The notes: generated from the letters alone by a model not told the origin. DNA of 64,000 bases from Elusimicrobiota bacterium (GCA_021730935.1 JAKFYJ010000010.1:6500-70499), one strand, 5' to 3'. Shown: positions 12,001-48,000, numbered from the stretch's first letter. Program-made: numbers and translations.

Positions 12001-15000
12001 ATCGGCCAGAAAGGCATCGGGACCACCAACTCCACAGACGCGTTCGGCAATGTGACCGCAGGCACCGTCGAGCAGGATTTTGTCCGGACCGAAAACGGCG
12101 AATGGAAAATTTCTTCCAACAGGAGCGTCTCCGAGACCGTCAACCTCGACGGATCAAAACAATCCCAGGACATGACCGTTTCTTATACTTATGATTCCAA
12201 GGGCGAACTGATCGGCGCCCACGGAACAGGCACCACGAAGAGCGACGATTACGGCAACATCACCCTCGGGACCACTGACCAGACTTATGAGATCATCAAC
12301 GGCGAAGCCAGGATGGTCAAATCGATTTCTTCCACAAATTCCAAAAACGCGGATTCAACAACCCAGACTTCGGACATGGTCCTCACCTATTCTTATGATT
12401 CCGACGGACGCCTCACAGGGGCGAGCGGAACAGGCACTTCCCGCTCCGACAGCTACGGCAACATCAGCACGAACGATATCCGGCAGACCTTCATCGTCCT
12501 CAACGGCGAATCCAAGATGCTCGAATCTTCTTCCATCTCCGAAACCATAAACACCGATGGGTCCGGCCAGAACCAGACCATGGTCATCAAATATCAATAT
12601 GACAATGCCGGCATGCTCGTCGCGGCCCAGGGAACGGGTTCTTTCACCAGCCATGACCCGGGCGGAACGGGCAGTGCGAGCCGCTTCGGCGCAACCACTT
12701 CCAAGGGGGAAATAAGCCAAATTTACACCGTGAGAAACGGTCAGGCCAAACTCCTGGTGAGCTCCACAAAAACAGAATCGTCCGGCACAAAATCCGAAAT
12801 CAATGTGGGTTATGAGTATGACGACAACGGCGCTCTCACAGGCGCCTTCGGCACCGGTTTCTCCTATGGCGAGAAATCCGCGAGCTACATCGAACAGACC
12901 TATGTCGTGATCCGGGGCCAGGCCCTCATCAAAACTTCCACCACCAACGGTCTCGAGTTCGGCAACGAATCCACCCTCACAGTCACCTATTCCTATAACT
13001 CCAACGGCCAGCTGACCGGAGCCCACGGCCAGGGCACCATTCCCAACGGCACCATCGAACAGTGGTACGACATCCTCCACGGCCAGGCCAAACTCACCCG
13101 CACCCACACGCACATTCAAGCGTCCGGCGTGGATGAAGCCACGATCAAGGAAGATGTCACTGTCGACGGAAAAACTCGGACTATAGAAAAGGTTGTCCGG
13201 AGCGAATATTCCTATGTGATGGACAAAGACGAGAATTATGGTTATGACGCCGGCGGCAGGATGAACGCATTCGATGAGCATGAAGAAACTCAGATGCACT
13301 CGAGTTCCACAGTGCTGAGTCTCCGAATCCACGAAGAAGGCGGAGGTTCAAACTGGACCATCAATCAGGGCGTGCTTGAAGCAGGCGCCATGCTTGGGGG
13401 AACCTATTTGACCGGCGCGGAAATTGAGGCATACAATCAGAACGCCAGAGATTTCGGCGGGGTTGTTTCAAATATTTCCCTCGACGTAAACCGGCATGTT
13501 AATGTTCAATACAGCACGGACCTTTCCGGAACTGTGTCCGTGACGGCATTGGGAAGCGCCGATTCAACGCAGATTTCCAATTGGATCAACATCGCGAAAA
13601 ATCCCGAAAGCCGAGACGCGCTCAACAACACCGTCACAATGAACTCCAGCCTCGGCCTCGTTTCCATGACCGCCATCATCCGCGGATACCAGGTGAGCGC
13701 GTTCATGGGCTCCAACAGCGGCTCAACCCAGGTCCTGAACTCCTTCACGAACCTCTCAACAGGCCGGAGCTTCACAACAGAGGGCGGCGCCGCGGATGCG
13801 GATGTCGATGCCTTCATGACCGGAATCGGAGGCGTCTCCTCCATCAAAGATTTAAATGCCCTCAACTCTCAGGAGAACCGCGCGAGGGGCTTCATTTCTG
13901 CAACGGCCATGTTTGGAGACTTGAGAGTCACCACCTTGTTAGGTGTCGATTCCAGCGGAGTCAGTGAAGTTCAGAACAGCTTCACAGATCCCAAGACAGG
14001 GCGGACCGTTGGCGCCTCTGCGAATGCCGGCATAAGCGATGTCAACCTTTGGCTCACTCAGTCCAGCAAGGTTTCTTCTCCCGAAGCTCTGGACGCTCTG
14101 AACAGCGCGGACAACCGGGCTCTCGGTTTGAGGAGCATTGATGCCTTCATCTCCGGCGTTCATTATGTTTCGGGCATGGACAGGAACGATCAGGGATCGA
14201 TGGCTCCTGCCACCACCGCCACGGACATTGTGACTGGGAAGAGCGTGACAGTTTCCGGAGGAACTCCTTCCGGAGCCATTTCCTCGTTGCTCACTGGCAT
14301 AAACGCCATCACAAACCCAGCTGACCTGGAAAACTTTTTCAACGCCAATCGCGCGTTGGGCCTGATGTCATTCAACACCGTCATCGGCAACCGCGCTTAT
14401 GGCATGTCCATGGGAGCCAATGCTTCCGGCGCGATCGTTCCCGTCCTGCGCATGACGGACACTCTCACCAACAGGAGCGTCACAGGAACGACAAACGCGT
14501 CTCAGTCTGAATTTGAATCATGGATGGATCAGGCCAACCATTCTTCCGAGAGCAGTTTGGGCTCGCTCAACAGTGAAGATAACCGGGCCAAGGGCCTCTT
14601 ATCCGCCACGATCGTTGTCGGCAACCGCCAGATCTCCGTTTTCACAGGCAGAACAGAATCCAACTCCAGCGAAACTCAAACCAATGTCACCGACCTCAAC
14701 ACAGGCCGGAGCATCACTTTCGGAGGGACCGCATCATCGTCCGATATCTCCTCCTGGCTCAAGACTGCCGACAGCGCGTCTTCCAGAGAGCAGTTGAACG
14801 GACTCAACACCTCCGACAACCGCGACAGGGGTTTCCGCTCCGCCTCCATCACGCTGAACGGCATGCGGATCAGCACGGCATATCAGAGAAACGAAACCAC
14901 TGGGGAAATGGACGTCCAAAATGCGATCGTGGACCTCTATTCCGGCCATTCCATTTCGATTTCTGCCGGCGTGAGCGATAAAACCGTCTCGGCGTTTTTC

Positions 15001-18000: not shown

Positions 18001-21000
18001 ACTGCTGTAAATTTCTCCGCAAATCTTGCCGTTGGTTTATTATCAAACAAAAGCCTGGGTCAATCGTTAAAGTTCGCTCTTTTCTCTGCAGTTGCCGTGT
18101 CGGCGCTGAACAGTCTTTCGTCCCTGGGCGGAGTCAAAGGACTTGGATTTTTAAAGAAATTGGAAATCGGTTCCGGGTTCGGCGGGTCCGGCCCGTTGTT
18201 GAGTGGAGCTGAAAAAGCGGCCGCAAAACTTGAGGAAAATCTAGGAAAGCTAATTGTTGAAAGAGCCAAGCAAAGATATCTTCCCCAGGTCCTTGGAGCC
18301 ATCGCGGAACGGCATTTGGGCCAAAATTGGGCGTGGGTCGGTTCCATGTCAGGCATCATCTTCAGCGGGGGCATGCCTTCCAGCCTGGATGTCTCGTTCC
18401 TCTCTTCCATCGCCGCTCCTCTGGAAAACAAAATCTTCGGCTCTTCGGGCATCACCTTCACCCAGACCAGCGACGGAACCTGGATCAAGAACACGGTGAG
18501 AAACAAACGGGACAAAGACGGCAACCCGATCACGGACCAGCAAATCGTGTCCGAAAAAGACATCTCAAAACACGCCGTCAAAATCAATTACAGCGGCAAA
18601 CAAATCGGCGGCGCAAGTTTCCTGCGCACCGTCTTCTCCCAGACCGCCGGCACCATCCTGGCAGCGTTGGGCTCTGTGATTCAAAAACCTCTCGCACACC
18701 TCTTCTCGTTCGTTGGATTGACAGGCGCGGCAGAATTCATCGCGCCCCTCGGCATGACCATAAATGGGCGAACAAAATTGCCTGACGGCATATGGATGAA
18801 TCAGAAAACACACAGGTCATCTGACGGAGAGGGCAACCTGGTTATCAATGAGGGAGGCCGAAATGTTTCCGTGATTCAGGACAACAATCCTCCCATCATG
18901 CAGGACGCTGAAACCTCATCTCCAGGTTTGAAATATGAGGGAAGCGCTCAAATCAACGGCGCCCGCGTTATGGTCTTTACGGACACGAATTCAGGCGAAC
19001 TCAAATTTTACACTCAGAGAGAAGGCTCAAATGTGAGGACGCATTTCCTCTCGGCAATCTCCGAAACCGGCGCAGGGTCCAAATCCCTGATGCTCCAGAA
19101 AGGCGGAGAATCCGCCGTGGCTGTGATCGGCGGGATGCTCTGGCAGATTAAAGTCGGGGACAATGGAGAACTCAACGCTTCTCAATCCGCCGGTTATCCT
19201 GAAGGGTCAATGAGCCTTGGATCCATCGCTCTTCCTGTCGGAGCGCGCGTCTCGAATGTTTCGTTCGGACAGGGCAATCAGATCGTCCTGAACACCGAAA
19301 ATACGGTGTCCTTCAACAGCATGTCTTCCCAACAGCAGGCGGCGCATGTTGAGCATAACGGAATCGTGAAACGCGCTGAAAACACGGGCTCGTCCCAATT
19401 TTTAGTCGGCCAAACCGGGGAATTGATTTCCAATGAGTGCGTCACGCTCACCGGCTCCTCCGACAGGAGCATCGTCTCAGGAACAGTGCTCGGCGGCATG
19501 CCTCTGGCGGACATGAACAAAAAAATTGTCCTCCGCACTCACGCCGGCGGAGCGCAGGAAATTGTGGGCGGAACGCAGTTCTCCTTGTTTGACGGCGACG
19601 CCTCCAAAGAACATGTTGGAGTCCAGATGAAACTTGCCGGCGGAAAGGGCAGCATATATCTCGCTGCGAACCCGGGCGGAGGATTGACCGCGTTCTGGAA
19701 TTCTGATTTCAATTATGAAGTGACAGAAGCCCCGTCGCAGGGCGGGGGAACTTCAACTTCAGGGAAATTGCCGAAAGTCCAAACCACAGGCAAATTGTCC
19801 ATCGGCTCAAAAGCCGGCGTCCAGAATTTCGGCAAAGGTTCCGGAAAGTTTGCGGCCCTCTCATTCGTGAACGGCCAGGCCGCGCTTCAGGGAACAGGGG
19901 CAGTTCTCGAAATGGCCCAATACGCTTCTGTGGGCGCATACCAGGCGAAAAATGAATTGACTCTCACCTTCGGTTCCGGCAACGACATCAGCGTCTCCAA
20001 CCTTCAGAACAATGCCCGCCTTGAAGCTTCTTTCGGGCAAGACCATTTTATTTTCACTCAGGATCAGAAACACGGCAATCTGACTTATCGCGTTTCCTCC
20101 GATTCTGAGCTCACGGGAACGCGGTTCTATTTCGTTCATTCTGTCGCTGAAGCATCATCTGCGGGGTTCAGCGTCACGGAATTTGAGTCTTATTCTAAAA
20201 AAATGTCTTCCGCAGAAACGATTCAGGGGATGACGCTTTATCAGCCCGAAAACGCTGACGGATCAACTTTGGCAAGTTTCCAGATCGGTTTTGAGAGGAA
20301 CGGCAGATCGGGGACCTTCGAGCTCACCTCTGAGAAAACAGCTCTGGGCTTTCAAGGATATTCCCGAAACTTCGATTCTTTTGCCGAAGCGCGGGATTTT
20401 TATGGCGATGACGCAACCGCTCTTGAAGCTCTCAAGGCTGTTCAGTCCAGGCTGGGCAACGATCAGGTCCGATCCGTTTCCACTGCGCTCAGAGTCGGCG
20501 CTGATTCGATTGACTCTGTTTCTGTCCAGAGGATCGCAAAAGTCCAGGGCTCGAATCAGCCGGTTGTCTTCAGCGACACATATGAGCTCGGTAATAAAAA
20601 GTTTGGAAGCGCCGTTGATTATAGGCAGGGATTGAGCGCCGGACTGATTCCAAAAACCGTATTAAACGCTCTCGACAAACTGAGTGACGCGGAAAGAACC
20701 GTCCTTGGGACTCCGATGACCGTAAACTTTGATGAAAATAATGTGGTCACCGGCATCCGTTTCAAAACCGGCTATGTCGAAATCGGAAGCGACCGCTCAT
20801 TCTATACTGGGGCATTCACTGCCTACCAATTTGTTCCTTCCAAATCTGACCCTTCTAAATCTGAAAGCATCAAGGTGCGTATATACAAACCGCTCGAAGT
20901 GGATCTCAAACGAATTTCTGTTGCTGACCTCTCTCAGCTTGGATCGTCATTCAATCTGACTTATGGCCGGAACAATCTTCAAAGCGGGGAACTTTCTGAC

Positions 21001-24000
21001 AATTTCTTTAAAATGGATAACCCTGAATTTCTTCAAAACAAGCCGGTCTTCAAAGGGACCATGGTTAATGACGGAACCACCCTGGAAGGAACCTTCAACG
21101 AAGCTTTAACCATCGTCGGCCCATACACCGCGCGAAACGCAAGGGTTTCCAAAACGGATTTCAGGGCGGACATGATCGTCAATGCGAAAGGCGAGGCGAG
21201 ATATTATCTCTCAGGATCAATCGGCGCCGGATCATCGAAAGCATCTTTCGGCGCACTCAACACTGCGAACGGTCAGCCCATGGCCGTGACCGCGAGCGTG
21301 CAGACTCTTATTCCGGGGAGCCTTGTCCTGGAAGAACACAACACACAGAATGAACAGCCCAAGACACAGAACATTGCCGGAATCATCAATGTAAATCTTG
21401 AATTTAAATCCGGACAGTTTACCTCCCGTTCCGTCGTGGGGCTCAACCTTGAGGAGGCAGGCAAACAACTCGCAGATCATCAGACATTCAGCTTTGCCGG
21501 GATAAACTGGACCTGGAACGCCGCCGATAAAAATGCCACAGGGAATGCGTCACAATTGTTCAGTTCCAACGAAAAAATCAACATCCTCGGGGATAAAACG
21601 ACCGCTCTGGTCAAGTTGGACCAAAATGGATTCAGTCTGGCGAGGAATGTTGACGCAAATCTGAATTCTGATGCCGTAAACTCAAGACAAGGCAATTTTA
21701 GCGGAAACAACACCTCTGGAGCTGTTTTGCAAAAGGGTTTTCAACTTCAGCTGAACAGCGCCGAACATCTCGCTCTTTTTGAAGGCGAAGCCCAGATCAA
21801 ACAAGCTCTTGTCATCAAGCATGAAGCCGGGCAAGGAGGCGGCACAGCGGCCAGCGTCAAGACGAATGCAGTCATTGAATATCTGACGGACGCCAAGAAC
21901 AATGTCGTGGGTTACAAAATCAGCGAAGGACGCCTCTCCATGCGCCAGGGCAAGTGGGCTCCGATCGGCGATGGAACAACCTTCCTCAAAGGGTCCATTC
22001 TCCGCGCCCCGGGCAAGGACGGCGCCGTGCGCGTGGATGTGTTGACCACCGAATCCAAAATCGTCATGGGACAGGGCGGCGAAATCATCCGCCTTGAAGG
22101 GACCGTGAGAGTGAGCGAGGGCTCAAAGATTTCCACACTCGCCGGTTCCGACGTCACGAACGAGCCCGCTTATGCCGGCATCCGGCACACCACAGTGGCT
22201 GGCGCGTCCATCAGCTCTCTCAACCGGATCGTCTCAACCGAGAACGGCCAAAAACCGGTTTCTTCTCTGCGCGCTTTCGACGCCAAGGGAGCGCTCATCG
22301 GGCAGGTTTATATTTCAAATTTCACTTATTCAACCTACAAATATCCAGCGTTCGTCCTCGCGCGAAGCGACGGATCCGCCCATGTCAAAATCAAAGACGG
22401 GAAATGGGAACTTGGAAGGATGTCAACCGGAAAAATTAATCTAACCTCCGGCGACAGAGTGGAATTGAACGGTCATGTTTCACCCGCAAAGAAAACAGTC
22501 TTTACCTTTGCAAAGAATTTGTCATATGAGGCCAAGGAAGCTTTGCAAAATGTTGGAATGGGAGAAGGCACGGACTATTTCAGCTCTGGAGGAGAAAGGA
22601 TTGCTTCTGTTTCTGATTCCGCGGGCAAGAGAACATTGTATGTGTTTAACAGCAAGAGCCTGACCGTTGATTCATTTGTAAGCGATGCCGGGAGTTCATT
22701 CTTTAATGTGAATTCCAAAGGCAAGTTTGTTCGCCAGGTTTCCACTGTGAGCATCGATAAAAATGGCGACATCAAAGAAACAAACACTGACCATGTCACA
22801 CAGAAAGGTTTTTGGGACACGATCACGCGTGTCTCTGGCGGCGGATTTGTTGTGGTTGGCAAAGACGGGACCACGGCAAGATATAACCCCAAAGGCGCCA
22901 TGACCTCTTTAACTCTCGGCGGCAAAAAAATTGATTTGGAAACGCTCAAGACCAGGCAGGAAGAGGGCTCCGCAATTAATCAGAAATCTGATTCAAAGAG
23001 CGTTCCGAAACTTACTGATGCTCAAATTCAGAAAGTTGTTTCAGCCTTCGCAGAGCTTCAGGCCGGACGAGCGCCCTTTGAGGGGCTGGTGGGAAAAGGC
23101 GTTGAAGTCGCAGGTCTGATGAGTTATAGAGACACAAGTTTGGGGCAGGAATTCACCCGTTTCGGATTGATGAGCGAGATAATGCAGGGCGCCGGGAAAT
23201 TTGCCAATGAAATGTTTGGAGACGCGCGAGACGAGAGAAACAATGTTTTTGCCGAATTTGCGGCTTCCAGAAACACACTCGAGATCGGCGGAGTTTTCAA
23301 CGCCATTGCCGTTCAAAGCGCCGCTCAGTCTAAATTTGAAAACGCTCGAAACTCCCTCGGACTCAGCGAAGATCAGATGTCAGCCGTTTTCTCAGACCAC
23401 ATTCAAAAAATATCAACTGCCGATCCCGCGGGCGGAAAAGAGTCTTCCGTTGAGCTCGTGGCGGGGTTTGGCGCCGCTTTCAACTCTCAATTCAAGAACG
23501 CTCTTGTCGGCATCCTGAGCGGTCGGGGCAAAGATTCTGCTGACAAGAAAACCACTTCGATAAGTTTTGACCGATATACTTTGACCCTCGGGAGAAACGA
23601 ACTTGGCCGTTTTGACGGAAAGGTCACTTTGAAATTTGGGAACACGCGGCTGAGCTGGTCCTCAAATGCACTTTCAACTTTTGGAACACATGGAATGAAC
23701 TCACAAGCGTCCATTGAACAAGCGAAAGCCTTTGTTAAAGGCCTTTTCATGGAAGGCGGGGTTTCAGAACTTTTGATGAACACTCCGACAGTGAAATTTG
23801 TCACGCAAACTGCGCAAGGCGAACTGTCCGGCTATCTTGCCGGAGGCAAATGGACTCTTGATTTTCCGTCGATGAAGAAACTGTCGGATTCCGGCATTTT
23901 CAAAGATCTGTCCAAAGGTGACAACAACATATCTGATGTGAGCATCAAATCCTTGAATGAAGCCAACCTCCAGATTTCTGCAGATGGATCAGCACGCGTC

Positions 24001-27000
24001 GTCAGAATGGTCATCACCATGGATGCCGACACAAACAGCGCATTCACTGCCGTGCAGGGGAAAAGCGGGGGCAAGGGGGAGCCTTCCAAGAACGATGTCA
24101 AGGTCACTTCAGTGGCAGGCGATGACAGCCGGATTCATGTCTCCGGAACCATTGACTGGAAACTGGACCGCAACAAAAATAATACTTGGGGCTTCAACCT
24201 CAAGGAAGTTGGAAGCAAGCTGAACCTTTCTGATTCGGGAGCAGCCAAAGCGTTCGGTCAGGAGACGGAAGGATCATATACGGTGGATGGTCAAGGTAAA
24301 CTCAAAGCCGATATCGCTGGAAACCTTGGTTCCGGAATGTATCATCTCCTCCTCGCCATTGTCGTTCCCGCCCCTGTGTCACTTGAAAGACGCAGAGTTG
24401 TGAAGCTTGGCGAAATTGCCTCCGCCGACACCGATCACGCCATCGCAACCCTCATGTCAAAGGCAGAGAGGAATGAGACAAGCAGAAAGGATAATAGAAA
24501 ATCCGACCTTGCATATACTAAGCAATTTTTTGGCCTCGCTACTTCGTCTATTATAGAAGGATTGTACTCCGTTATCCCAAGCCCGATGAGAGGTGTCGAA
24601 ATTAGTTTAAGTTTTGTCGGAATCGTCGCATGGGGAACCGCCTATATCATTACTTCTCCTCTTTATTTGCTTCCATCTTCTATTCAGAATTTCTTGGGGG
24701 TTCGAGAATTCGAAGCACGCCAGGGAATCAGAGGTAATTATCTTTTAGATCATTTCTATGGAAAAGACCATGATCAAGTGACTTGGGCAGAAGCCACATC
24801 AACCTGGCACGCGTTTGCTGGGTTGGCAGTCGTTGCCGCGGCTGGCGCCTTTATATTGGCTCTTGCTCCGGCAATATATGTTTCGAGCGTATTTGGATTA
24901 GTATCCGGCGAAGCCACAATAACTGAAGGAGCAATACAAACCGCAATTAATACACCTGCTCTCTCATCCATCGTTAGAACAGTTTTCTCTGCGGCAGTTT
25001 CCGGACACTCATTGGCAACCTCATTTGATGCCGCGTTCGGCGTCGGCGAGTTTGAAGGCAAGAGAGATTATGGATTGGCCGCGCTTCATCTTGGAATGGC
25101 CCTTGTCCCTTACTTAACTCAAGGGGTCGGATTTTTTGGGGCCAAAGCCGCAGCGTTCGCACGCTTATCAAAAATTCCCACTATATCAGTGACCCGGACT
25201 TCTGCGATGCTTAGATTTAGCATGGCATATGGGACGATCAGTGTTGTTTTAAATCGCGCTCTAAGCGCTATGGAAAAGGACCCTGAAAAGCATCGGGGCC
25301 TTTTCAGGTGGCTCGATCAGCAGGACGCAACTGCTTTTATTGCCGGATCTATAGCCGGAGCCTTTTATGGTGGTATATTCAGCGGTAAAGGCAAAACAGC
25401 TGGGTTTCTTCAGGAACCCCTGAAAAACATCCGCACTCATTTCGGAGTCTCTGCAAAACTGGTCAGTGCTCCTGGAACAGTGACTAAAAAAGATTTACTC
25501 ACAGCAGGCTCAAGCTGGGCATCCACCCTTGTCGGCGCTCTTTATGGCGGCTTAAACTTTGCTCGAATCAATTATTATGGTTTTGGCGATGCCATGACGC
25601 TTCTTCCGGGATATCATCAAGACGCGTCTGGAAAGTGGGGTTTGGCCTGGAACCCTCACATATTGGGCAAAGTTGAGGGACCTGACGGCAAATTGACAGA
25701 TGAGAGAGCGGCAAGCGCTGTTTCAGGGTTCCAAATGGGTCTTGCCTTTGGCTTGGTCGGAGGTTTCCAAGTCACTGCGTTGACCGGAAACACAGTTGCC
25801 GAAGCGGTGGGGATGGGTGACAGCCGCCTTGCAAGATCTCTGATGAACTTCTTGCCAAACTGGGGAATCGGAACCACACTTCATACGGGACATTCCGTTG
25901 CGACGTTTTCTCTGGTCGAAAGCTTTCTCAATGGTTTTACAGCCGCTCTCGATAACATCCCATACTTGCACGAATTTACAGTTCCCGGCACCGAATATAA
26001 GATATCAATCACAAAGATTCTTCAGGAAAATGTCACATTTCTGTCAGCCCTTATTGCCCCTTCCACCAGCGAAGCCACTGCTCGGGCTGTTGTCGCTGAG
26101 CGTGTTAAAAAAGGTGATGTCGCCCTTGAAAATGCAATTAATACACGAAATGCGGAAGGCACTGACTTTCAAATGGTGACCAGAACGAGGCAAGGAGGCG
26201 ATGATCAGCGAATTCGGGTTAAAATCGGCGGCGGCAGAACGGTTGAAGTCAGCCTTGACGCGCACTTGCATCATGAGATTGCCAGCGTCACCGTTGACCG
26301 CGCCGTGGGCGATGTCACAGGTCAGGAACGCGCTCATGGGCTCGTGAACCTGCTTGATGTCTCGCGTTCCCGAACCGAGACTGGCGCTCAAATGACAGAT
26401 GTAGTGAGAACCGAAGTCGTCAGACAGCTCTCTGAAATGCCGGAAGGACGCGCTATTATCGATTCAGTTGACAGCATTAAAACGATGACTCCCGAACACA
26501 AAAAAAGCGTAATTGATGCGCTTGATAGTTATGCCAGATATGTGACGAATGAAAAGCTCGGCGTTCCTTCCGTAATCCAAACACGAAACGAAATGGAAAT
26601 TAAAAGAAAGCTTGAAGGCACAGGAATTACCTTCGAAGACTTGGCTCAACCTAATCTTCGAAGCTCTCTGGATGGCCGAGTCAGAATGGGGCAAATCCTA
26701 AAGTTTGCGTTGCTAAGTGACAAACAACAACAGTTCCTTGCGCTTCCAGAGCCGGGGCAAAGGAATGTTCATGATGCGGTCAAGTTGCTGGATGTCCTTG
26801 AAAAAAATAAAAAGATTGGGACCGGCGCAGGGCACTTTGAGAAAGCCATTGTCCAGGATATCGACAAACTGCTCAGAGGGACAGGATTTAATCAGGCCGA
26901 CCTCGGCATCATTAAGACGGCTTCTGGATTCGATAAGGAACACGCTCTCTCCTCCGGTCTAAACGATATTTTAAGAGGCGGATTTGAAGGTCTGATGGAC

Positions 27001-30000
27001 CGCGTTGTCTCTGATTTCAACCGCACCGCCGGAACCTCCCTGTCTCATGAACAGCTCACTGTTGTCGCCCGTGAATGGATCATGCATTCGAGAGCCGAAC
27101 AATCATTGGGGCTGATGCAAGTGAACGGCAAAACAATTATTGTTTCTCACGAAGTAAGATCGAATTTGGAAACATTCCTGGCCAAGAATTCGCTCAAGTC
27201 ATTCATGGCCCAGGCGAATGCGAACATCGCTGAATTGGCTGATAAAGTGAATGCCCCCAAGGCAATGGGGACCCGAATTGATGTGGGTGGAGAGAAATTT
27301 AAAGTAACGCAGGCGTTGCACGACGCTGTAAACATTGAATATAACGTCCAATATTCTAAAGCAGAGCAATCGATGAGCGCAAAACAAGCCTCACGCGAGC
27401 ATCTTGACCCGGTGATGGCCAGAGCCTCGGAACAACACAAAAGCCGGCTGGAGGCTCTGCGCGGCGTGCAGAGTGATTTAATTTTAGAAAAAGCTGTGCT
27501 CAGCCCAAATGACAAGAAACATGAATATCTGGCCATTCGAATGAAGTTGGTTGCCACGCAAATTGAAGGTCTTGAAAGAGGAAAAGATGTTTCAGTAAAA
27601 CTGGCATCGCTGGATGAAAAACTGAAAGCGACGGAATATCAAAAAGAAATAAACGCGAAATCACTAGCCGAAATTTCAGCCGATGACATTGGGGACTTCA
27701 TGAAAGGGGAAGGGCACGATGAAGCGATCGGGAGAACGCATGTGACCCGCGAAAACGCGAAAATTGATGTCCAAAATATAGTCGCAAGCAACAAAACGGA
27801 ACTTCAAAAGGCCTCAGACGGATTGTCCGCGAGAATTTTGGAGTTTGCTGGAAACGCGCGCCCGGAAAACTTTGTTAGCCTCGTGAGCGATTTGGGGAAA
27901 GCCGTCAACATCGATGCGCAATTGAGAACAAACCTGTTTAACGCCATGGACAGCCTTTGCGGCTCTTGCTCAATCATGAGCGCGTTTCAGTCAGGAAGCG
28001 AAACCGGAATCGTTGAGGCCGTTCGGCGCATACCCGGGGCACAGGTCAGAGACATCAAACCATGGGAAGCCAACAATTTGACCGGGGAAAAATCAAAAAT
28101 TCTGGATGCCATGAGAAAGCGCGGAGTTCTTGACAGGAAAAGCCTCAGTGACGCGCGATTTGGGGGAATGACGGACGCAACCCCGCTTTTCGGCAAATCA
28201 AGGTATGCTTCGAGATTGGAAAACGGCGAGGGTATTTTACGGCATTTAAAACGCGGGGACACGCTCAGGCACGCCAGCGGCGAAAGATTCTTTGCCGTTG
28301 ACGAGAAGACTCTGATCAGGCTGGAGGAAGGCCAGGAACCCGCCTTGGAGTATGGAAAAACATCGAACAAGCCTGAAATTGTTTTTCGAGACAGCAAGCA
28401 GAATAAATGGCAGTTTGACGGATCGCGTTGGGTAAAGCTGGATGCGAAAGGCAACCTGACTGCAAAAACAAAAGAGGTTGTGCAGAAATTGCGTGAATCC
28501 GATTTTGATTCGGAAGAAGTCAAGATCTTTGCCTCAGAATCTGTTGTGCTTTCCAAACGCTTGGTGGAGAAATATTCTGGAAAGGTTTTCGAAATATTCA
28601 GCAACCTTTCGGAAAGAGATGTCCTTGCCAAAGATGGTTCCCGTGTGTCTCCTTTTGACGAGAACCTGTCGTTATACGCCATTGTTGCTCAAGAACAAAT
28701 TATGCATCGAGCAACGGAACCGAAATACCAATTCAGCCCAACTCAAGTCGCGTTCGAGGTTATGTTTGCTCGGTCCATGATCCTGGGTTATCTGGAAGCC
28801 AAGGACCGCCCTCTGGCTTTAGGCGCGGCTATGGCCGCTGGGAAACAGGAAGGATCTTTAGTGGGGTTTGTTTCCGCTTATCGGTTTCTTAAGTCACGAG
28901 TGGGAACTGCCGGCACTAAACCCATCCGATTTGCGTTTAAAACTAAAAATGGCAATCTCGTAAACCAGGTTATGAATTCAACCTATGGGCGCGCTTTCGT
29001 TGCGGATAAGGGACTTGATTTCGGAATGAGGAAAGTTCATGGAAAAATGTCCGGCACGGACATCAAGAATGCGCGTTTTTCTGGAATTGATGTGATGGAG
29101 TTCAAAACTGTCCAGGAGCTCATGCTTGAAGACGAATCCATCTTCGTAAAGACATATGATGGAAGTTTTGACGATGAAGTGCATGCTGAACTCGCCGCAA
29201 ACCCCATGAGGCGCGGTTCTTCGATGAATGGGTTTACGAAACGCGGTTCAGCGCTGAGATTTTTGAACCTGTCGGCTATCTTTGACACCAGAAGTCAGCG
29301 TCAATATTTTAATGAGGTCATTTTGCCGACAGAAGCTGTTTTTGACAGAGTCGTTGATGTCTTCAGGGAAAATGGAACGCTCCGCAGAGAATACAACTCA
29401 ATGGACAGCGCAATTGATGTTATTCCTGCTTTAAACTCAGGAACAGTTGTGGCCACTGAGCGCGGACATTTTGAAATCAGAGGCGATGTTTTGACGAAGA
29501 TGTATGACGACATGACAAAGAGCGGAGAATTAAGAGGGATGGGCCGCCCGGAGTTTGATGAGACGGCTAAACTTGCTGTTTCAGCGATCATGATGCGGAA
29601 AAACAAAGATTATTTCACGAGAGTTGAGAATGGAATGATGAAATATGATGTTGGGGACAGCGACGGAAACATCATGCCTGAAACCGTTTTCAGCGAAGGA
29701 AAATTGGCCGCGTGCGTGCTGATGAAGGAAATCAAGCTTGGTAAGGGTGAAGATTCACTGAGAAAACTTGATTTTGATACCGATTTTAAATATGTCGAAA
29801 GTCTCGGCAATGTCTTGGATCAGGCAGAGCCCAGACAAATGGACATGATCAGAACCATGAAGGCTTTTGATCCAAAAAAAGCTGTTTATGCGACGGGGAC
29901 AATGGACGGCGTTCGCAAAACATTGGACAGGATGGGTGCGGATATTGTGTGTTTGGACGCCGAAGGCCGATTGGACTTGGGCGTCAGAGAAGACGGCACG

Positions 30001-33000
30001 GAAAGACGGATCGTGATTGCTCTGGATTCTGTCCATAGCGTTGTGGAACAGATATTAATAGCGACTAGAGCAGATCCAAACTTAAGCCAGATCATTATCA
30101 CGGGCGCTGACACAAGCAAGCTGGAAAAAATTGCTTCAAGTTTGAGAGAGGCTTCGGCACTCGGATTTGAAATTATAACTCTGGACTTTTCAAATGGGGA
30201 CGCATCGTCGAGAGAGTTGTCGGAATTAAAAGACCGAATTCAAAGCGAAGCAAAAGGGCCGGGACTGAAAAAGAGAATCGTGATTGCCAAAGGCGTTGCC
30301 GAGGGAAGCAATCTATTAGGCGTAGCCACAAGCGACCGAGCCATGCTGGTGAAGGTGGATGTTTCTCCATTCAACAATGTAATTCAGGCCGCAGGAAGAA
30401 TGAATGACATCGACGGCCGCCGCATGAAGGGAATTTTCAGCCAGACTCTGGATCTGACCACGGTTGCCCGGCATTTAACTTCAGAGGAATTCAGCGAGTT
30501 CAAGAAACTATATGATCAACACGCCATCGCCACAGGTTCGCGGAAGGTTGAACTCGCGGAACAAATGAGTCAATTGGTGGTTGATGCTCAACGGAATTGG
30601 GTGGATGAAATTGATACTCAACAGTCTAAAAAAACAGCCCAGGTTTTATCGGTGAACGACAGAAACACAGGATTCACCATGGATGAAGCTATCAGGCTCG
30701 TTCACGGAGAAGCCATGTCCCAACATGCCCCCGGCTTTGCAAGCTTGCTCGGGGGCAGAGCGCCACCGCTGTCTGCGATTCGACAAACCCTCAGCAATAT
30801 GGGCGTCACGAATATACATGCTTTAGTGAGCTATCTGGACAACAAAGGAGCGCTCTATAGCACGGTCAGAGGAACATCAGACGACGATAGACTGCTTACG
30901 CAGGAAGGTTTCCTGGCTGCGATCCTTTTTGTTAATACCGCGGCCAACATTTGCAACTTGAGTGATGCGGCTCGAAGCAATTTAAACACGGTCCTGCCTA
31001 GTGCTTCCCAGTTCGCTTTTAACAATCAGATCGACTTTTCATCCGCTTTTTCTATCACCTCACTCCTTATCGAGACTGGAGTGATTAATATTATCAACAA
31101 AGACAAGGATTTCAACGCATTGCTCTCCATGTCCAATGCTGTGAATGTGGCCAATGGTCTGGTGACGCCGCAAAATAGAATTGGCGCCGGGGAGCTCCAA
31201 AATTTCTTTGGCTCTTTTGAGCCCCGTTTTAGACTCGCGCAATATGTCACAACTCACGCAAGGTCGGGGCTTTCTCGAAGCGAAAGAGCGCAAGTAAGGT
31301 TATTTTCGAGATTTGCTGAGGTTCAGAAAAATAAGAATGATGCTGACGATTCTTTCAACAGCATTTTTGCTGAGAATCATTTGGCACAGGCCGCATATGA
31401 AAATTTTGGACAGGCAAGTTCCCGCATGGCATCTAGTTGGAAAGATATCGGTAAGAAAAACGGCTTTCTGGCGAAAGCTCAATCTTGGGTTCCGTTCCTC
31501 AAATATGTCGGCAAATTTACAGCATCAATGGGCCGATTTGCTTTATCAGACATCAGAATTTTATTTACATTGGTCAGGCAGGGGTGGGCCAATTCCCGAA
31601 TGAACCGACTTGAAAACAACACACGCCTGAACGCCTTGGGCAATGACCCAGGCTCTGCGCGGGCTGTCATCTCGTTGCTTTCGCCTGAAACCACGGGTCT
31701 GCCCGGAGCCGACAACATGCTCGCAAACGCGGGTGTGAGGAGGGAACACGCCAGGCGGTCATTCAATGCCGAAACGAGCCGCACGACTGTCAAGCAGTTC
31801 GCAGAGGCGGCCAGGTCTTCCAATCCTGACGACTGGCAGTTCAGGCCGACCTCCCGGCTTGTGACTGTTGCGCAACATTCTTTCACGGGCGCAATGGCTC
31901 TGGCGTTTGCCCTTTCCTGGTTCTTCCCGCCTGTCTCCGCGGCGGCGGCTGTTTGGGCCGGAGGCGCCGTCTCTGTTCTTCCCTTCGGTTCTGCGATCGC
32001 GGGCCTTGCCGGCTCCGTTTCTCCTGTTGCTGTCTGGACGATCACTGCCGCAAAGGCGATTTTGGCTTTCGGATACGGCGTGAAATCCAGCAAGGCGCCT
32101 GATGCAGACGCAAATACCCCGGGTAACTCAAAAGTGCCGAAGTTTATGGCGAACATGGGCGGGAAAATGGGGGCCGTAAGCTTCATTCAGGCGCCAATGA
32201 TGGCAAATATGTTGGGAGGCGGAATTTTCGGTACGGTTGCGGCAATGGCCGGGGCATTCGTCGGCGGAAAATTGAACCAGGATTCCAAAATCCGAACAAC
32301 CTTCGGCGCGGTCGGCGCAATCGCCATGATCTTTATGGCCGTCAACTTGTTGCCCTCAGTGGCCAGCGCGGCTCCGGCGGCGTCCAGCATTTTGCCGAGC
32401 TTTGGAGTCCATCCGTCCGCCGCGTTGCCTGTTGGACTTCTCACACTTTTCTCTTCCGCCTGGGCGCCCATCTCTGCGGCAGGCGCATATGTTGCCCATT
32501 CATCCGTTTTCGTGACTTATCTGAAACCGGCCGGAGCTTTCCTCATGGCCATGGGCATCATGGGAAGCGGGGCTCACGGTTTGTCTTCGAGCGCGTTTGA
32601 AGGAGCCGTTTCATTGATTGACCGCGCCACGAGCAATCCCAGGACCGTTGCCAAGAAAAATCTCGACAAACAGCTCAAAAAAGCCGCGGAACGGGCGCGG
32701 GTCAAGGCGGTGAAAGAGCGGATGGACGGCAGACGCTCAGAAGAAGAGATCCGCGAAGAAGTGGACAAAGAAAACATCAAGGGAGAACTCACCGTGGCAG
32801 ACTTGGACGCCATTGTTGAATCCATCGCCTCATGGTTCGGCAATGACCGTGAAGAAGCGGCAAGGTTTGTTCTCGCGGTTTATAACAATCCCAATTGGAA
32901 TCAGACTCAAGTCTCCAACCTCGCGGGAGCCGCTCTCACCGCGGACCGCCTCAGGAAAGATTTGAAAGACAAGACGGGCCAAGAGAAAGCAAAAATTGAA

Positions 33001-42994: not shown

Positions 42995-43341
42995 CAGCTC
43001 AGGACAGAATGGAGCGCGGAGGTCACGAATGTCAGGGTTTGATTTGAAAGGGTTCCAAGTTTTTTGCGGATGAGCCTTTGGTCTATGGTCACAAGCTTTG
43101 ACAAGCGCACGATGGAAGGTTTGGGAAGGCCGGCGTCTTTCAAGTCTGCAGGCGAAAGGAAGAATTCGTCAAGCCCGATGTCTTTTGGGACCTGCGATGT
43201 CACGGCGGCCAAAATGATGTCGGGGCTTTTCCGGTTGAACCGGTCGTTTGAGACCACAAGTGCGGGCCTCATTTTGGTTGTCGTCAGGTCAGTGAAGGGG
43301 AAAGAAACGAGGACAACGTCGCCCCGTTTAAAGGGTGTCAT
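42994..43341 (-). CDS. Type II toxin, PemK/MazF family (115 aa)
   Basis: MTPFKRGDVVLVSFPF..KMRPALVVSND..ILAAVTSQ..SIVRLSKLVTIDQRLI..KLGTL matches the PemK/MazF layout (G.(I/V)..V.F....K.RP.(L/V)V(V/I)S ... (V/I)..(L/I)TS ... (V/I)..(D/K)Q(I/L).T(I/V)D). It overlaps the upstream small ORF by 14 nt. Confidence 0.85.
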   Translation of the reverse strand: MTPFKRGDVVLVSFPFTDLTTTKMRPALVVSNDRFNRKSPDIILAAVTSQVPKDIGLDEFFLSPADLKDAGLPKPSIVRLSKLVTIDQRLIRKKLGTLSNQTLTFVTSALHSVLS

Positions 43342-43510
43342 AAATCGAATCTTGGGGATTGTTCCAAAAAGAGAAACTTTTTTCCGCGGCTTTCAGACGG
43401 GCGAGATCATCGGCTTTCAGCCGAATCAGCTTGGGGAGATGGGCAAGAAATTTTCTCTGCTCTTCGGGCTTGAGCGAGCGGACGGCTTTTTCAACAGTTT
43501 TCAATGTCAT
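43328..43510 (-). CDS. Small antitoxin partner of the PemK/MazF toxin (60 aa from ATG 43510; the track uses TTG 43516)
   Basis: It sits directly upstream of the toxin and overlaps it by 14 nt. The sequence MTLKTVEKAVRSLKPEEQRKFLAHLPKLIRLKADDLARLKAAEKSFSFWNNPQDSIYDTL is a small helical protein typical of antitoxin positions. No family was recognised with certainty. Confidence 0.65.
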   Translation of the reverse strand: MTLKTVEKAVRSLKPEEQRKFLAHLPKLIRLKADDLARLKAAEKSFSFWNNPQDSIYDTL

Positions 43511-43516
43511 GTGCAA

Positions 43517-43545
43517 ATTCTATCAGGTTTCATTTCGATCTTCAA
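43517..43545 (-). promoter_or_regulatory. Putative sigma70-type promoter for the TA operon (near-leaderless)
   Basis: Read on the minus strand: TTGAAG (43545-43540), a 17-nt spacer, TAGAAT (43522-43517), then 6 nt (TTGCAC) and ATG at 43510. There is no Shine-Dalgarno sequence. Confidence 0.4.
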
Positions 43546-43578
43546 GAGCAGTCCGGCGCTGAACAGGGCTTGAGACAA

Positions 43579-44062: not shown

Positions 44063-44980
44063 ATGATTAAGACCTGGCTTAGGGTGTCCACCCTCCTGTG
44101 CTTCTTTTCATTTTCCGGTTTAAATAACGGCTTCACTTATTTTATAGTCTCCTCCGGCCAGGTCCAGCGCCTGGACGTCTCCCACGCATTGATCGAACGC
44201 CTCGCGGTCGCGGTCAACCCTGTCAGAGTCCAGTCCGAGTTCATTCATTTCGCGAAACATTTCTTCGTCTCAAAACCTGCCCGCGTGATCGAATTCGCGA
44301 GCCAGCGGGCCGTGCAGAATTTCATGCTCCAGTCCTCCGTCCTCCACACCTGGCTGGCCCTCTCCTGCGGCAAACTGATTTCTGTCCCCGCCGCGCCCTC
44401 AGCTCTGTCCGCCGAAAAACCTTCTTCCGCCGTCCAAGTTTCAAATGTTCCCGCGCGTTCCAACCCAACCGGAACCGCCATTGCCGCGATGAACGCCGGC
44501 CAGACTCATTCGCTCAATTCATTGCAGGAAACCCTCGAAGCGTCCCGCAAACAGGATCTCGTCCTCAAGCGCCAGAACGGCGGGGCTCATTCAGCCGAAG
44601 ACACTTTTTCCATGCATCGCCGCAAAAAATTCGAAGTCCCCGAACGCTCCGATTCCCGTTCCGCCTTCACGGCAGAAAAACTCCGAAAATGGCTCACTTC
44701 CTCTCTATCCAGAGGCGGAGGCGCCGCTCCCGAACCCTCGATTTCCGTTTCCGCCAATTCCACCCCAATCACTCTGTCAGCAAGCCAGGGTGATTTTCTT
44801 TTTATAAGATCAAAAATTTTGGCTGATTCTTTTTTCCGAAGACTGTATCGAGCAAAAGACTTCGCATACGCTTTTGCGAGATCCAAGCGAGCCCGCACTC
44901 GGCGAGCGTGTCTTCGTAAAAATGAGTCAGCCAAAATTTTTGATATCCATTTCGATCTGCGCGCGGAGACCATTTCATGA
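44063..44980 (+). CDS. Hypothetical protein (305 aa), hydrophobic N-terminus, basic C-terminus
   Basis: ORF with the same C-rich third-position bias as the giant genes. Its TGA stop overlaps the ATG of gene 2 (ATGA at 44977-44980). The N-terminus LRVSTLLCFFSFSGL is signal/anchor-like. I saw no clear RBS and recognised no family. Confidence 0.45.
   Translation: MIKTWLRVSTLLCFFSFSGLNNGFTYFIVSSGQVQRLDVSHALIERLAVAVNPVRVQSEFIHFAKHFFVSKPARVIEFASQRAVQNFMLQSSVLHTWLALSCGKLISVPAAPSALSAEKPSSAVQVSNVPARSNPTGTAIAAMNAGQTHSLNSLQETLEASRKQDLVLKRQNGGAHSAEDTFSMHRRKKFEVPERSDSRSAFTAEKLRKWLTSSLSRGGGAAPEPSISVSANSTPITLSASQGDFLFIRSKILADSFFRRLYRAKDFAYAFARSKRARTRRACLRKNESAKIFDIHFDLRAETIS
44965..44968 (+). promoter_or_regulatory. 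Shine-Dalgarno (GGAG) for giant gene 2
   Basis: GGAG lies 8 nt upstream of ATG 44977. Confidence 0.55.
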
Positions 44981-45087
44981 TCGGTTTCTGGGCGTCTAAA
45001 CTCAATCTTCACTGGCTGAAATCCACCGCGGCAGTCCTCGCCTGCGCGCTCCTCTTCTCTTTCATCGCCCCGCCCTTCGCCCAGGCC
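44977..45087 (+). other. Sec-type signal peptide of gene 2
   Basis: MIGFWASKLNLHWLKSTAAVLACALLFSFIAPPFAQA / GIWEDRR: a basic n-region, a hydrophobic core and an AQA cleavage-type site. Confidence 0.7.
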
Positions 45088-48000
45088 GGCATCTGGGAAG
45101 ACCGCAGAAAAGCGGTTGAGCAGATGAACCGCGACAAGGAAAAAACCCGCGACGCTTTCAAGCCCGCCCGCAGTGTCCCTTCTGCATCAACAGAGCCCAA
45201 GGTTTCAATCCCCGGGTTCGGAGACGGGTTCACGGTCCCCTCAGGCCTCGGCTCCGTGGTTGAATCGTGGGGGGGGACTCAGACTCTCGAAGCCAAGGCC
45301 AAGGGATATCCTCTCGTCATCCACATTCAGGACGCTCACGGGTTTTATGGCGCTCAGAAAAACGAAGCCGCCCTCCTGAAACATATTTCCGAATCTTCTT
45401 CACCGATCCTTGTTTCAGCTGAAGGCGCCTGGACGCCCGTGGACGCCCGCTGGCTTGAAGCGCTTCCGGACCCCGGCTTCCGAAGCGTTGCGGCCGAAAA
45501 TCTCCTGCGCTCAGGCGAGATCACAGGCGAACAATTTTTGGCGATCACCGAGGGCGCGGAAAAAATAAAAATCACGGGCGCGGAAGACGAACGGATTTAT
45601 AAAGCCAACCTGAAATCCCGCGAACTGCTTGAATCCGAGCGGCCCGCCATCCTTGCGAAACTGAACGAGTCCCTGAACCGGATCAACGAAACCAAGAAAA
45701 TCGTTTTCCAAGACAAGCTCCTTTCCCTGGACATCGCTTCCCGCCAGTTCGAAGCGCAAAAAATCACCCTCGCGGAATATCTGAAATTCGTTCAGTCCCG
45801 TTTTGCTCTGGACCCTGCGAAATATCCTTCGCTCCGCCAGCTTTCCGATTTGGCCGCGTCAGAAGATGCCCTGCCGATGTCCGCGGTGGAACAGGAACGC
45901 AAATCCGTTTTGGATTCTCTCTCAGACAAGCTCGACAAGATGACCCTGGCCCAGCTCGCCCAGACCAGCCTCAATTTCAGGACCGGGAAAATGCCCGCCT
46001 CCGTGTTTTATGACACCCTCATCAAACTGGCCCGCGTCAACAATATCCCAACCCCATCGCTCGACAAATATCTGGATTATCTCGCCCGCTCCGAGTCCCT
46101 TGACCCGCAAAAGGCGCTCGCGGAACTGAAATCTTTTGAGTCCGAAGCCATGCTCTCCCTCGCCGCAGGAAGGCCTGAACCGCAAAAGCTGATCATTGAG
46201 AGCCGCGGCATGCGTTCCCGCCTCAAATTCTGGGACGAGAAATTTTCGCCCGCAGACTGGGCGGAATATCAAAAAATGCAGTCAGAGAATTTCGCGGAAG
46301 GCGTTCCCGGAGGCAAACTGTCCGCCGCCCAGCTCAAGTTTTTGCAGGACGCTTATTATAAACTGGCCTTCAAGCGCGACCGCATCATGGTGGAAAAGAC
46401 TCTTTCAGCCGCGAATGAGCAAGCTTCTGTCGTCCTCGTCGCCGGAGGTTTCCACACGCCGGGCATCACCCACATCCTCCGCGAAATGGGCGTGCCGTTC
46501 ATTGTGATCCGTCCCAGCCTCAACAGCCCTGCGCCGGCGCAGACAGCCCGCAAACCGTTCACCAAAGCCGAATATTCAGCCTTCGCCCAAAAATATGCCG
46601 CCAACCTTGAAGCCCTCAGGTCCGGCAAAAATCCGGAATCCGACAAAACCATAGCCCAGGTCATCGACATCATTCAGAACCGCCTGTCGTTCTCCGAGCC
46701 CGTCGAAAAAGACGGCCAAACCCTGGTCTATGGAGCATTCCAGGGCGACCAGTCCCGGGTCTATTTCAAAATGTCCTATGACCGAACCATCGCCTCCGAA
46801 CCCCTCGCCTCCGCCGATTTCCAGGACGCCCTCAAGGCCTCCATGGGTTCTCTGCGCGCCTTGACGGTCCTTGCGGACCCCACAGATGTGCCCAAACTCG
46901 TGCGCACTATCCTTTACGCGACTCAACCCAATGAAATCAAGGGAGTCGTAGAAGACGAAATCCCTAAAGAACTTCAAAATCCTGGTGCAGACGAAATCGC
47001 CGAGCGGTTGAAATTAGCGGCGGCCGTTGCCCGCGCGAAAGGCGCCCAGACGCCAGCTCCGTCTCCTGCCCCGACGGACAATCAACCCGCCGCGAGTAAA
47101 AAATCCGGTTCGGCCACATTCAATCTCCCCAGAGCCTCTTCCTTCTTCCTTCCCCTGCTCCTGGTTTCAGGCGCGGCGCTTGCTGTTTATGGTGTCCAGC
47201 TTTTGTCGGGACTCCACCTCTCTCCAGAAATCGCGATGCATCTGCCTTCAATCCAGGGCAACTCCTCCGGAATTTGGGGCGCCGCGGCCGCTCTCCCGAC
47301 TCTGAGCGTCATGAAAGTTTTAGACATCTTCCTGGACCGTAAAAACAATCTTAGATCTGAGGCTAACCAGGAATTGCAAGACCGCGGTTATACAGTCGTT
47401 GAGTTTAGAGATGAAGGAGTGTCTCCATTCAGTCAGGCAGGGCAATACAAAGGACCATTGGCTGAATTGACAGAGAAAGCGCGTGTGGTTCCAAGCGAAG
47501 TTACGGCCAAACCGCTGAAGCATTTCGAAACGGGCAGGGATATTTCTGTGCGTTACAAAGGCGCGCAGGCCGTGATCGCCATGGTAAATGGATTGTCCGA
47601 ATGGATCATCGAACACTCAAACGGCAACGGCGCGATCCTGTATCGTGAAACTCCAGGCGGACTTGAAATCATAGCGCGAGATTTTGGCAGGCCGATAAGC
47701 AATTTAAGCAAACTTGACAGACTTCTGGAATTTGCCAGAGATGTCGCGTGCTCAGGGCGGGCGGGAACCTTCACGATCGAGTCGGGGGGCAAACACAATA
47801 AATACAACGGGATCGTCTGGAATCCGGAAATCTCCAAGAGTGAAGTGAAAAATGGCAGTTATATCGTCATTGATCTCAAGAGACAGGTTGTTGGCGGGGC
47901 AGTTGTCCACACGGGAACTCAAAAGCTCGATGAAAATCCTGTTTCATCTGACGCCACAGAAACTCCAACCGCTCAGGATTGGTACACTGCGTATGTGTCT

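Follow-up and report, generated by a model that had tools for sequence, protein, structure and literature searches.

The only published clue to how bacterial polypeptides of 10,000–80,000 residues are inserted into membranes or exported is that many of them carry a divergent SecA-like domain of their own. In such giant proteins, from Omnitrophota, Actinobacteriota and other phyla, divergent SecA DEAD and preprotein-binding domains lie beside transmembrane (TM) regions and lack the scaffold and wing domains; they were found by Pfam SecA models, and self-export was proposed as their role (West-Roberts et al. 2023, bioRxiv 10.1101/2023.11.21.568195). An architecture with the Pfam SecA_DEAD domain (PF07517) is shared by 20 long Omnitrophota proteins (bioRxiv 10.64898/2026.06.07.730766). 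Here we analysed a 64,000-nt stretch of DNA (the window) from an Elusimicrobiota bacterium (GCA_021730935.1, JAKFYJ010000010.1:6500–70499), in which the region 28660–30470 lies in frame within a single 14,267-codon open reading frame (ORF) without a stop. A preliminary description, made from the sequence alone, had read this region as a module collinear with SecA that carries altered catalytic motifs and is embedded between TM clusters. We consider it reasonably probable that the region is a highly diverged SecA-type module that would act in cis as a membrane-tethered nucleotide motor or clamp.

Embedded SecA-like motors in giant proteins are therefore of an already reported kind, of which the window module is probably a variant. 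Like the domains of West-Roberts et al., it combines a SecA-like motor with a domain resembling the preprotein cross-linking domain (PPXD) of SecA, in a protein longer than 10,000 residues, beside TM regions and with no evident wing. Compared by description only, it differs from them in being undetected by SecA profiles, in having a GKQ P-loop and a GEGSN motif V, and in its closest relatives, which are a giant protein from Elusimicrobiota and small proteins that stand alone. Canonical SecA and SecA2 (3jv2, 2ibm, 4ys0, 1nl3, 4uaq and 2fsi) are its best structural match, at ~12% identity in the structural alignments. The module departs from them in its Walker A motif (Thr to Gln) and its motif V (Arg to Glu, Asp to Asn), and it is embedded covalently in a membrane protein, whereas SecA is soluble and peripherally bound. 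What is new here is a lineage missed by all SecA profiles, its GKQEG P-loop and GEGSN motif V, and standalone relatives with an internal signal of the twin-arginine translocation (Tat) type.

Searched exhaustively with phmmer, 1.84 billion representative proteins yielded eight relatives. The best of them, P0001 (MBI4395863.1; E = 2.7e-50, 37% identity), and P0008 (MBI4396303.1) are 'partial' proteins encoded on different contigs of an Elusimicrobiota metagenome-assembled genome (MAG). Because P0008 ends in ...LVKQAIEDS and P0001 starts with IEDS..., the two are probably neighbouring parts of a single giant protein. By BLASTP, the module and the ~340 residues after it (ORF residues 9381–10503) are the only part common to the window giant protein and the Elusimicrobiota fragments, residues 1–893 of P0001 aligning with ORF residues 9597–10503; the extension downstream of the module core has no Pfam match. 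P0005 (L086 1109–7228) is a protein of 2,039 residues whose gene is flanked by other long ORFs, the ends of which overlap it. P0002, P0003, P0006 and P0007 are 'hypothetical' proteins of ~760–900 residues, the size also of the full-length cluster mates P0009 (of P0002), P0011 (of the fragment P0004) and P0013 (of P0006), and one relative in this size range comes from a Campylobacterota MAG.

In the standalone proteins, a SecA-like module of ~620 residues leads directly into a hydrophobic signal or anchor with the pattern RR-x-F-L-K, after which comes a C-terminal domain. This mid-protein twin-arginine-type signal was seen in P0011 (L001 1501–4101), P0003, P0009, P0013 and P0015. In P0011 it reads TRRDFLKTAGKAAALVGAASMG...AKA, scores 16.9 against the NCBIfam TAT_signal_seq cut-off of 16.7 and weakly matches Pfam UCR_Fe-S_N (E = 5e-4, below the cut-off of that family). 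The domain of ~230 residues after the signal is conserved, with YPPGI...C.D and RGPP.Y near its end, and was not recognised as any known family. Around the standalone genes lie toxin–antitoxin, transposase and various metabolic genes, none of which is a conserved partner. Judged by sequence, every family member is a SecA-like module covalently joined to putative membrane or exported sequence.

Back-translated pattern scans with the window sequence found no relative in GTDB genomes, metagenome contigs or viral contigs, a second metagenome scan with the family alignment yielded one locus only, belonging to a known cluster, and tblastn found no relative in phages or plasmids. A word-indexed homologue search came back empty for both the single sequence and the family alignment, even for the alignment's own members, and for this family its negative carries no weight.

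Translation of 28300–30900 contained all of the motifs quoted in the preliminary description, where it had placed them, and its claim that their order and spacing follow SecA held: all nine landmarks are collinear with E. coli SecA in both respects. Walker A and Walker B are 104 residues apart in E. coli SecA, 103 in the standalone relatives and 113 in the window; the corresponding distances are 12, 9 and 9 from Walker B to the P.I.S motif and 15, 20 and 18 from DY.V to TG., and 12 in all three from TG. to the L..A helix. The series that the family and SecA share in order and spacing is GEGK, DE, P.I.SG, DY.V...TG..M......L....K, [MA][ST]GT, G.G[ST][DN] and Q.R.R.G..G. In the standalone relatives the P-loop GEGKQ differs from the GEGKT of SecA in the Thr only, and motif VI fits Q.R.R.G..G exactly. 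At the position of motif Ia the window has IRFAFKTKNGNLVNQ, SecA has VHVVTVNDYLA and the family consensus is LLFIT..DLV.QM; the residues after DDEVH are NPMRRGS in the window and TPLIISG in SecA. The inserted domain contains ERGHFEIRGD (nt 29458–29487) and KDYF...DGNIMPETVFSEGKLAACVLMKE, at the latter of which SecA has DYIV. The altered key residues of the preliminary description (AAMAAGKQ, AEGSN and QAAGRMNDIDGRRMKGIF) are indeed there, as is the retained DEVH. The Gln of AAMAAGKQ is encoded by CAG, which would need two substitutions to become a Thr codon.

The question that the preliminary description had raised, whether these substitutions recur in other giant-protein modules, was settled by an alignment of nine sequences including the window, which is collinear over the whole module and in which the relatives are 20–34% identical to the window: GKQ and (A/G)EGSN are conserved. 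Walker A is ALGAAMAAGKQEG in the window, LGCGEGKQEGF in the standalone proteins and MGGGKQEGF in the Elusimicrobiota protein, and GKQEG is conserved in eight of the nine sequences. Walker B reads FDDEVHAELAANPMRRGS in the window and FVDEFHALLASSPYIISG in the relatives, which have KDYY...G.PM..T.F.D..LA.LIALKH at the insertion motif, ASAT or ASGT at motif III (window, ATGT), QGLGEGSN at motif V (window, KGVAEGSN) and QTRYRVG.KGRA.G.F at motif VI. The family signature is G(E)GKQEG, DE[FVI]H, A[ST][AG]T, GEGSN and Q.R.R.G..GR. Two motif VI arginines are kept across the family; the first Arg of this motif is lost in the two giant-protein versions, and the window also has a 2-residue insertion there. 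P0005 alone departs from the signature, and does so at all three sites together (GKM; NEIQ, with loss of the Walker B Asp; and GAGVN), a joint change that fits a single functional site. Because relatives at 20–34% identity keep them, the altered catalytic residues are a family trait and not decay. Both the membership of the module in this family and the conservation of its variant motifs are direct observations. A full-text literature search for 'Walker A' with 'GKQ' found no related description.

The fold was examined by structure prediction. A single-sequence AlphaFold2 (AF2) model was of no use (predicted local distance difference test (pLDDT), 34). A model built on the nine-sequence alignment reached pLDDT 63.3 and a predicted TM-score (pTM) of 0.43, and 280 of its residues have a pLDDT of at least 70; its best-predicted part is the inserted domain (pLDDT 78–90 at q330–420). 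Strands and helices alternate in the model, and the motifs occupy the canonical places of RecA-like lobes: the P-loop lies between strand q112–116 and helix q122–141, DDEVH at the end of strand q228–232, ATGT at the end of strand q467–471 and AEGSN after strand q599–604, and motif VI begins on helix q631–639. The module thus shows the pair of RecA-like lobes and the succession of motifs I, Ia, II, III, V and VI that are seen in superfamily 2 (SF2) proteins. The preliminary description had staked its reading on a SecA or SF2 fold, and Foldseek searches of the PDB bore this out: ranks 1–12 were all SecA or SecA2 (among them 3jv2, 2ibm, 3iqm, 4ys0, 5eul, 1nl3, 3iqy, 2vda, 4uaq and 6gox), with E values from 4.6e-11 to 9e-8, 764–825 aligned columns that cover almost the full chain and TMq 0.32–0.42, and the top matches spanned B. 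subtilis, T. maritima, M. tuberculosis and E. coli. The best non-SecA match was CSB (E = 9.5e-8), followed by Hef, MDA5, ISWI, DinG, UvrB and XPD at 1e-6 to 2e-5, mostly with TMq 0.20–0.27. In this medium-confidence model the two-lobed DEAD-type fold is therefore closest to SecA. The PPXD-like insertion sits in the first nucleotide-binding domain (NBD1) between motifs II and III, the exact place that the PPXD has in SecA; with the hhalign placement given below, the support for a PPXD is moderate, not decisive.

After the second lobe the model has only ~70 helical residues, including one 43-residue helix; this tail is a possible counterpart of the long helix in the helical scaffold domain (HSD) of SecA. 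In the standalone relatives the chain runs from the module straight into the RR-hydrophobic segment. The location of the module was as first described; its end was not, since the structured module extends from ~28672 to ~30666, the helical tail carrying it ~200 nt beyond 30470. We regard the SF2 fold as near certain and a SecA-type architecture, that is, a motor with a PPXD-like insertion, as likely.

Sequence profiles place the module in SF2. Scans of 27700–31500 with Pfam, NCBIfam and PHROGs returned nothing relevant, and the SF2 profile match came from the relatives: Pfam ResIII (PF04851), the N-terminal lobe of SF2 proteins, matched three of the nine family members (best E = 1.1e-5). For profile–profile comparison by hhalign we used an alignment of E. 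coli SecA and 30 other proteobacterial SecAs with less than 80% mutual identity. Each of three segments of the family alignment had the collinear SecA position as its best local match. The first-lobe segment (Walker A to B) matched SecA columns 192–228 (P = 8e-4), a score reached by none of 60 column shuffles; the insertion segment matched columns 334–359 (P = 0.02, 3 of 60 shuffles), which hold TGR..GLHQ, a PPXD segment found only in SecA; and the second-lobe segment matched columns 553–579, which hold motif VI (P = 0.06, 3 of 60 shuffles). These full column shuffles per segment replaced block-shuffle nulls, which were uninformative because the motif II block survives shuffling; the global mode of hhalign was likewise uninformative. 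Over the whole length, the score stems from motif II, and the alignment, when extended, stays collinear across 495 columns. Taken alone, the profiles point to SF2 membership and do not single out SecA, so the SecA assignment rests on the medium-confidence model and the SecA-typical motifs of the inserted domain.

The module lies deep within the giant ORF (Table 1). The reading frame extends open back to base 1 of the window, and the gene may therefore begin upstream of it. The sole Pfam match over the whole giant ORF is RHS_repeat, at ~11194–11280. A hydropathy scan revealed hydrophobic clusters at ORF residues 5834–5896, 8138–8245, 10560–10794 and 13871–13918, so that the module is flanked on both sides, as the preliminary description had proposed, ~1,250 residues downstream of one cluster and ~400 residues upstream of the next. 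An Arg/Lys-rich stretch (GVRREHARRSFNAETSRTTVKQFAEAARS...RPTSR) lies on the module side just ahead of the downstream cluster; by the positive-inside rule, this side is presumably the cytoplasm, where nucleotide is available. No second copy of the module and no other canonical P-loop was found in the window.

Table 1 Features of the giant ORF and its SecA-like module (window coordinates)
Feature	Position (nt)	Strand	Basis
Giant ORF, 14,267 aa, holding the SecA-like module	181–42984	+	ORF scan
Upstream hydrophobic (TM) cluster, ORF aa 8138–8245	24592–24915	+	Kyte–Doolittle peaks 1.68, 2.38
SecA-like module core (ORF aa 9498–10162): first RecA lobe, inserted domain, second RecA lobe, helical tail	28672–30666	+	AF2 model, Foldseek, homologous family
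Walker A-like P-loop AAMAAGKQ, Gln replacing the Mg-binding Thr/Ser	28825–28848	+	Translation, model, family alignment
Motif Ia-like strand IRFAFKTKNGNLVNQ	28924–28968	+	Translation, model, alignment
Walker B / motif II DDEVH	29170–29184	+	Translation, alignment, hhalign
Inserted domain, ~205 aa between motifs II and III, position of SecA PPXD	29215–29829	+	Model, hhalign, spacing
Motif III ATGT (SecA: MTGT), within VYATGTMDGV (29884–29913)	29890–29901	+	Translation, model, alignment
Second RecA-like lobe (NBD2-like)	30022–30447	+	Model, alignment, hhalign
Motif V AEGSN (SecA: GRGTD)	30298–30312	+	Translation, alignment
Motif VI QAAGRMNDIDGRRMKGIF (SecA: QLRGRSGRQG)	30385–30438	+	Translation, alignment
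Helical tail including one 43-residue helix (q687–729)	30454–30666	+	Model secondary structure
Downstream extension to ORF aa 10503, common to the Elusimicrobiota giant-protein fragment	30667–31689	+	BLASTP
Downstream hydrophobic (TM) cluster, ORF aa 10560–10794	31858–32562	+	Kyte–Doolittle scan

Several further observations concern the surroundings of the module. The Arg/Lys-rich stretch, at 31738–31857 (ORF residues ~10520–10559), contains ARRSF, ~35 residues from the hydrophobic region, which resembles the RR-x-F motif of the standalone relatives. Base composition shifts inside the giant ORF: the first 18 kb have a GC content of 54–58%, a negative GC skew and RHS-like repeats, and the region around the module (20000–32000) has a GC content of 47–50% and a positive skew, which is +0.17 at 28–30 kb. 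The first 300 residues of the giant ORF contain a repeating unit of ~90 residues (...TVTY.YD..G.L..A.G.G.F...). A further open frame, likewise very long (at least 6,352 codons; 44944–63999, + strand), continues beyond the right-hand edge of the window; its sole Pfam match is an embedded TolC-like outer-membrane efflux domain (OEP, PF02321) at residues 3713–3897 (~56080–56634, E = 6e-10), and no similarity between this frame and the first giant ORF was detected. The giant frames are separated by two small ORFs on the + strand, 43064–43573 (169 residues) and 44063–44980 (305 residues), neither with a Pfam match.

These features allow us to propose how the module might work. A two-lobed SF2/DEAD-type motor, with a PPXD-like domain inserted into its first lobe and a short helical tail, would lie in a loop between hydrophobic clusters, presumably in the cytoplasm, where it would bind nucleotide and serve as a membrane-tethered motor or a nucleotide-gated clamp. 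Its action would be in cis: nearby stretches of the giant polypeptide that contains it would be fed to, or held at, a translocon while they are exported or inserted into the membrane. In E. coli SecA, mutants have shown that the Mg-binding Thr of Walker A and the Arg of motif V are needed for ATPase activity. Since these are the positions at which the module has Gln and Glu, its nucleotide turnover is probably slow, or regulated in another way than that of SecA, and its activity may amount to nucleotide binding only. The role in cis export, the cytoplasmic location and the nucleotide chemistry are what we infer from the architecture.

A number of results weigh against a SecA-type motor acting in this way. 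The replacement of the two residues on which SecA ATPase activity depends is one of them. At the sequence level, the SecA profiles (PF07517 SecA_DEAD, PF01043 SecA_PP_bind, PF07516 SecA_SW and the NCBIfam SecA equivalogs) had no match in the window at E ≤ 1, SecA_DEAD had none in any of the nine family members at E ≤ 10, and neither phmmer with the module nor hmmsearch with the family profile found a SecA or helicase match among PDB sequences; the only SecA-profile trace was NF009538/PRK12904 in P0013 (E = 0.072, 11 bits against a cut-off of 814). The whole-length hhalign comparison with the SecA alignment gave a probability of 8% (P = 0.004), and with single sequences HsdR (34.6) scored at least as high as SecA (29.2), ahead of RhlE (28.6), DinG (23.5) and UvrB (20.0), five non-SF2 controls scoring 13.5–19.4. 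The structural model is of medium confidence, draws on an alignment of only nine sequences and orients its domains differently from SecA, which keeps the TM-scores low. Neither a wing domain nor a C-terminal zinc tail is in evidence, nor is a two-helix finger within the part that was modelled. Finally, the nearest TM segments are 400–1,250 residues away from the module, in a topology derived from hydropathy alone.

The altered active site raises the possibility that the module is a pseudo-ATPase, a SecA-derived fold that does not hydrolyse ATP, and perhaps does not bind it, and that serves as a structural scaffold or peptide-binding clamp. The Thr-to-Gln change in Walker A, the Arg-to-Glu and Asp-to-Asn changes in motif V, the missing first Arg and 2-residue insertion of motif VI in the window, and the clearly degenerate P0005 would all be expected of such a protein. 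However, at 20–34% identity the family still retains the Lys of Walker A, the Asp-Glu of Walker B, motif III and two arginines of motif VI, and the replacement residues Q, E, S and N are themselves nearly invariant, which argues for selection on a working site rather than drift. With GKQ, AEGSN and QAAGR..GRR, the window lacks the full set of canonical SecA catalytic residues but keeps the Lys of Walker A and the DE of Walker B, and we regard loss of ATP hydrolysis as the unlikelier outcome, although one to be taken seriously.

A different origin would be a generic SF2 helicase or translocase of nucleic acids, of the ResIII/HsdR or DinG type, whose likeness to SecA would reflect nothing but the shared RecA-lobe fold. 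Pfam ResIII is the sole family that matches members, the first RecA lobe being weakly similar in sequence from Walker A to B; HsdR has the top single-sequence score; PADLOC gave a weak DinG trace in one member; and standalone genes lie among toxin–antitoxin and transposase genes. Against this, the 12 best structural matches are SecA, with E values that surpass those of helicases by at least tenfold and mostly by 10^3- to 10^5-fold; the inserted domain aligns with a PPXD segment that is peculiar to SecA; the GEGK P-loop and the Q.R.R.G..G of motif VI are as in SecA; and all family members are joined to membrane segments or an internal signal. The module also differs from ResIII/HsdR translocases in having no nuclease or methyltransferase context, the standalone gene neighbourhoods holding no nuclease or methylase partner and PADLOC detecting no defence system. 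We therefore consider a generic SF2 enzyme improbable, and a defence or restriction helicase was rejected on the same evidence. That the motifs are a chance collection in a long, low-information ORF could be entertained only in that no curated profile matches the region; the idea is refuted by relatives that share all motifs (E to 2.7e-50) and by the Foldseek match at 4.6e-11, and it fits neither an ORF open for 14,267 codons nor a folded alpha/beta model.

Returning to a SecA-type module acting in cis, a bolder form of this proposal is that the GKQEG/GEGSN family is a distinct SecA-derived lineage of built-in, membrane-tethered translocation ATPases that export their own C-terminal segment. 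In the standalone proteins of the Campylobacterota type, the motor would be fused directly to a twin-arginine signal inside the protein and to a domain that is exported, and the Thr-to-Gln change would represent a new nucleotide coordination in a P-loop motor. We offer this form only tentatively, as it is rather unlikely to hold in full.

The locus extends the theme of SecA-like domains in giant proteins to a lineage that standard annotation misses, and within that lineage the seemingly 'broken' residues of the ATP site are conserved, not decayed. It also links the module of a giant protein to proteins of ~760–900 residues that consist of a motor, a signal or anchor and a putatively exported domain, a size suited to expression and mutation. 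These small relatives offer a tractable means of asking whether a SecA-like motor can function in cis and whether ATP is hydrolysed at a P-loop with GKQ.

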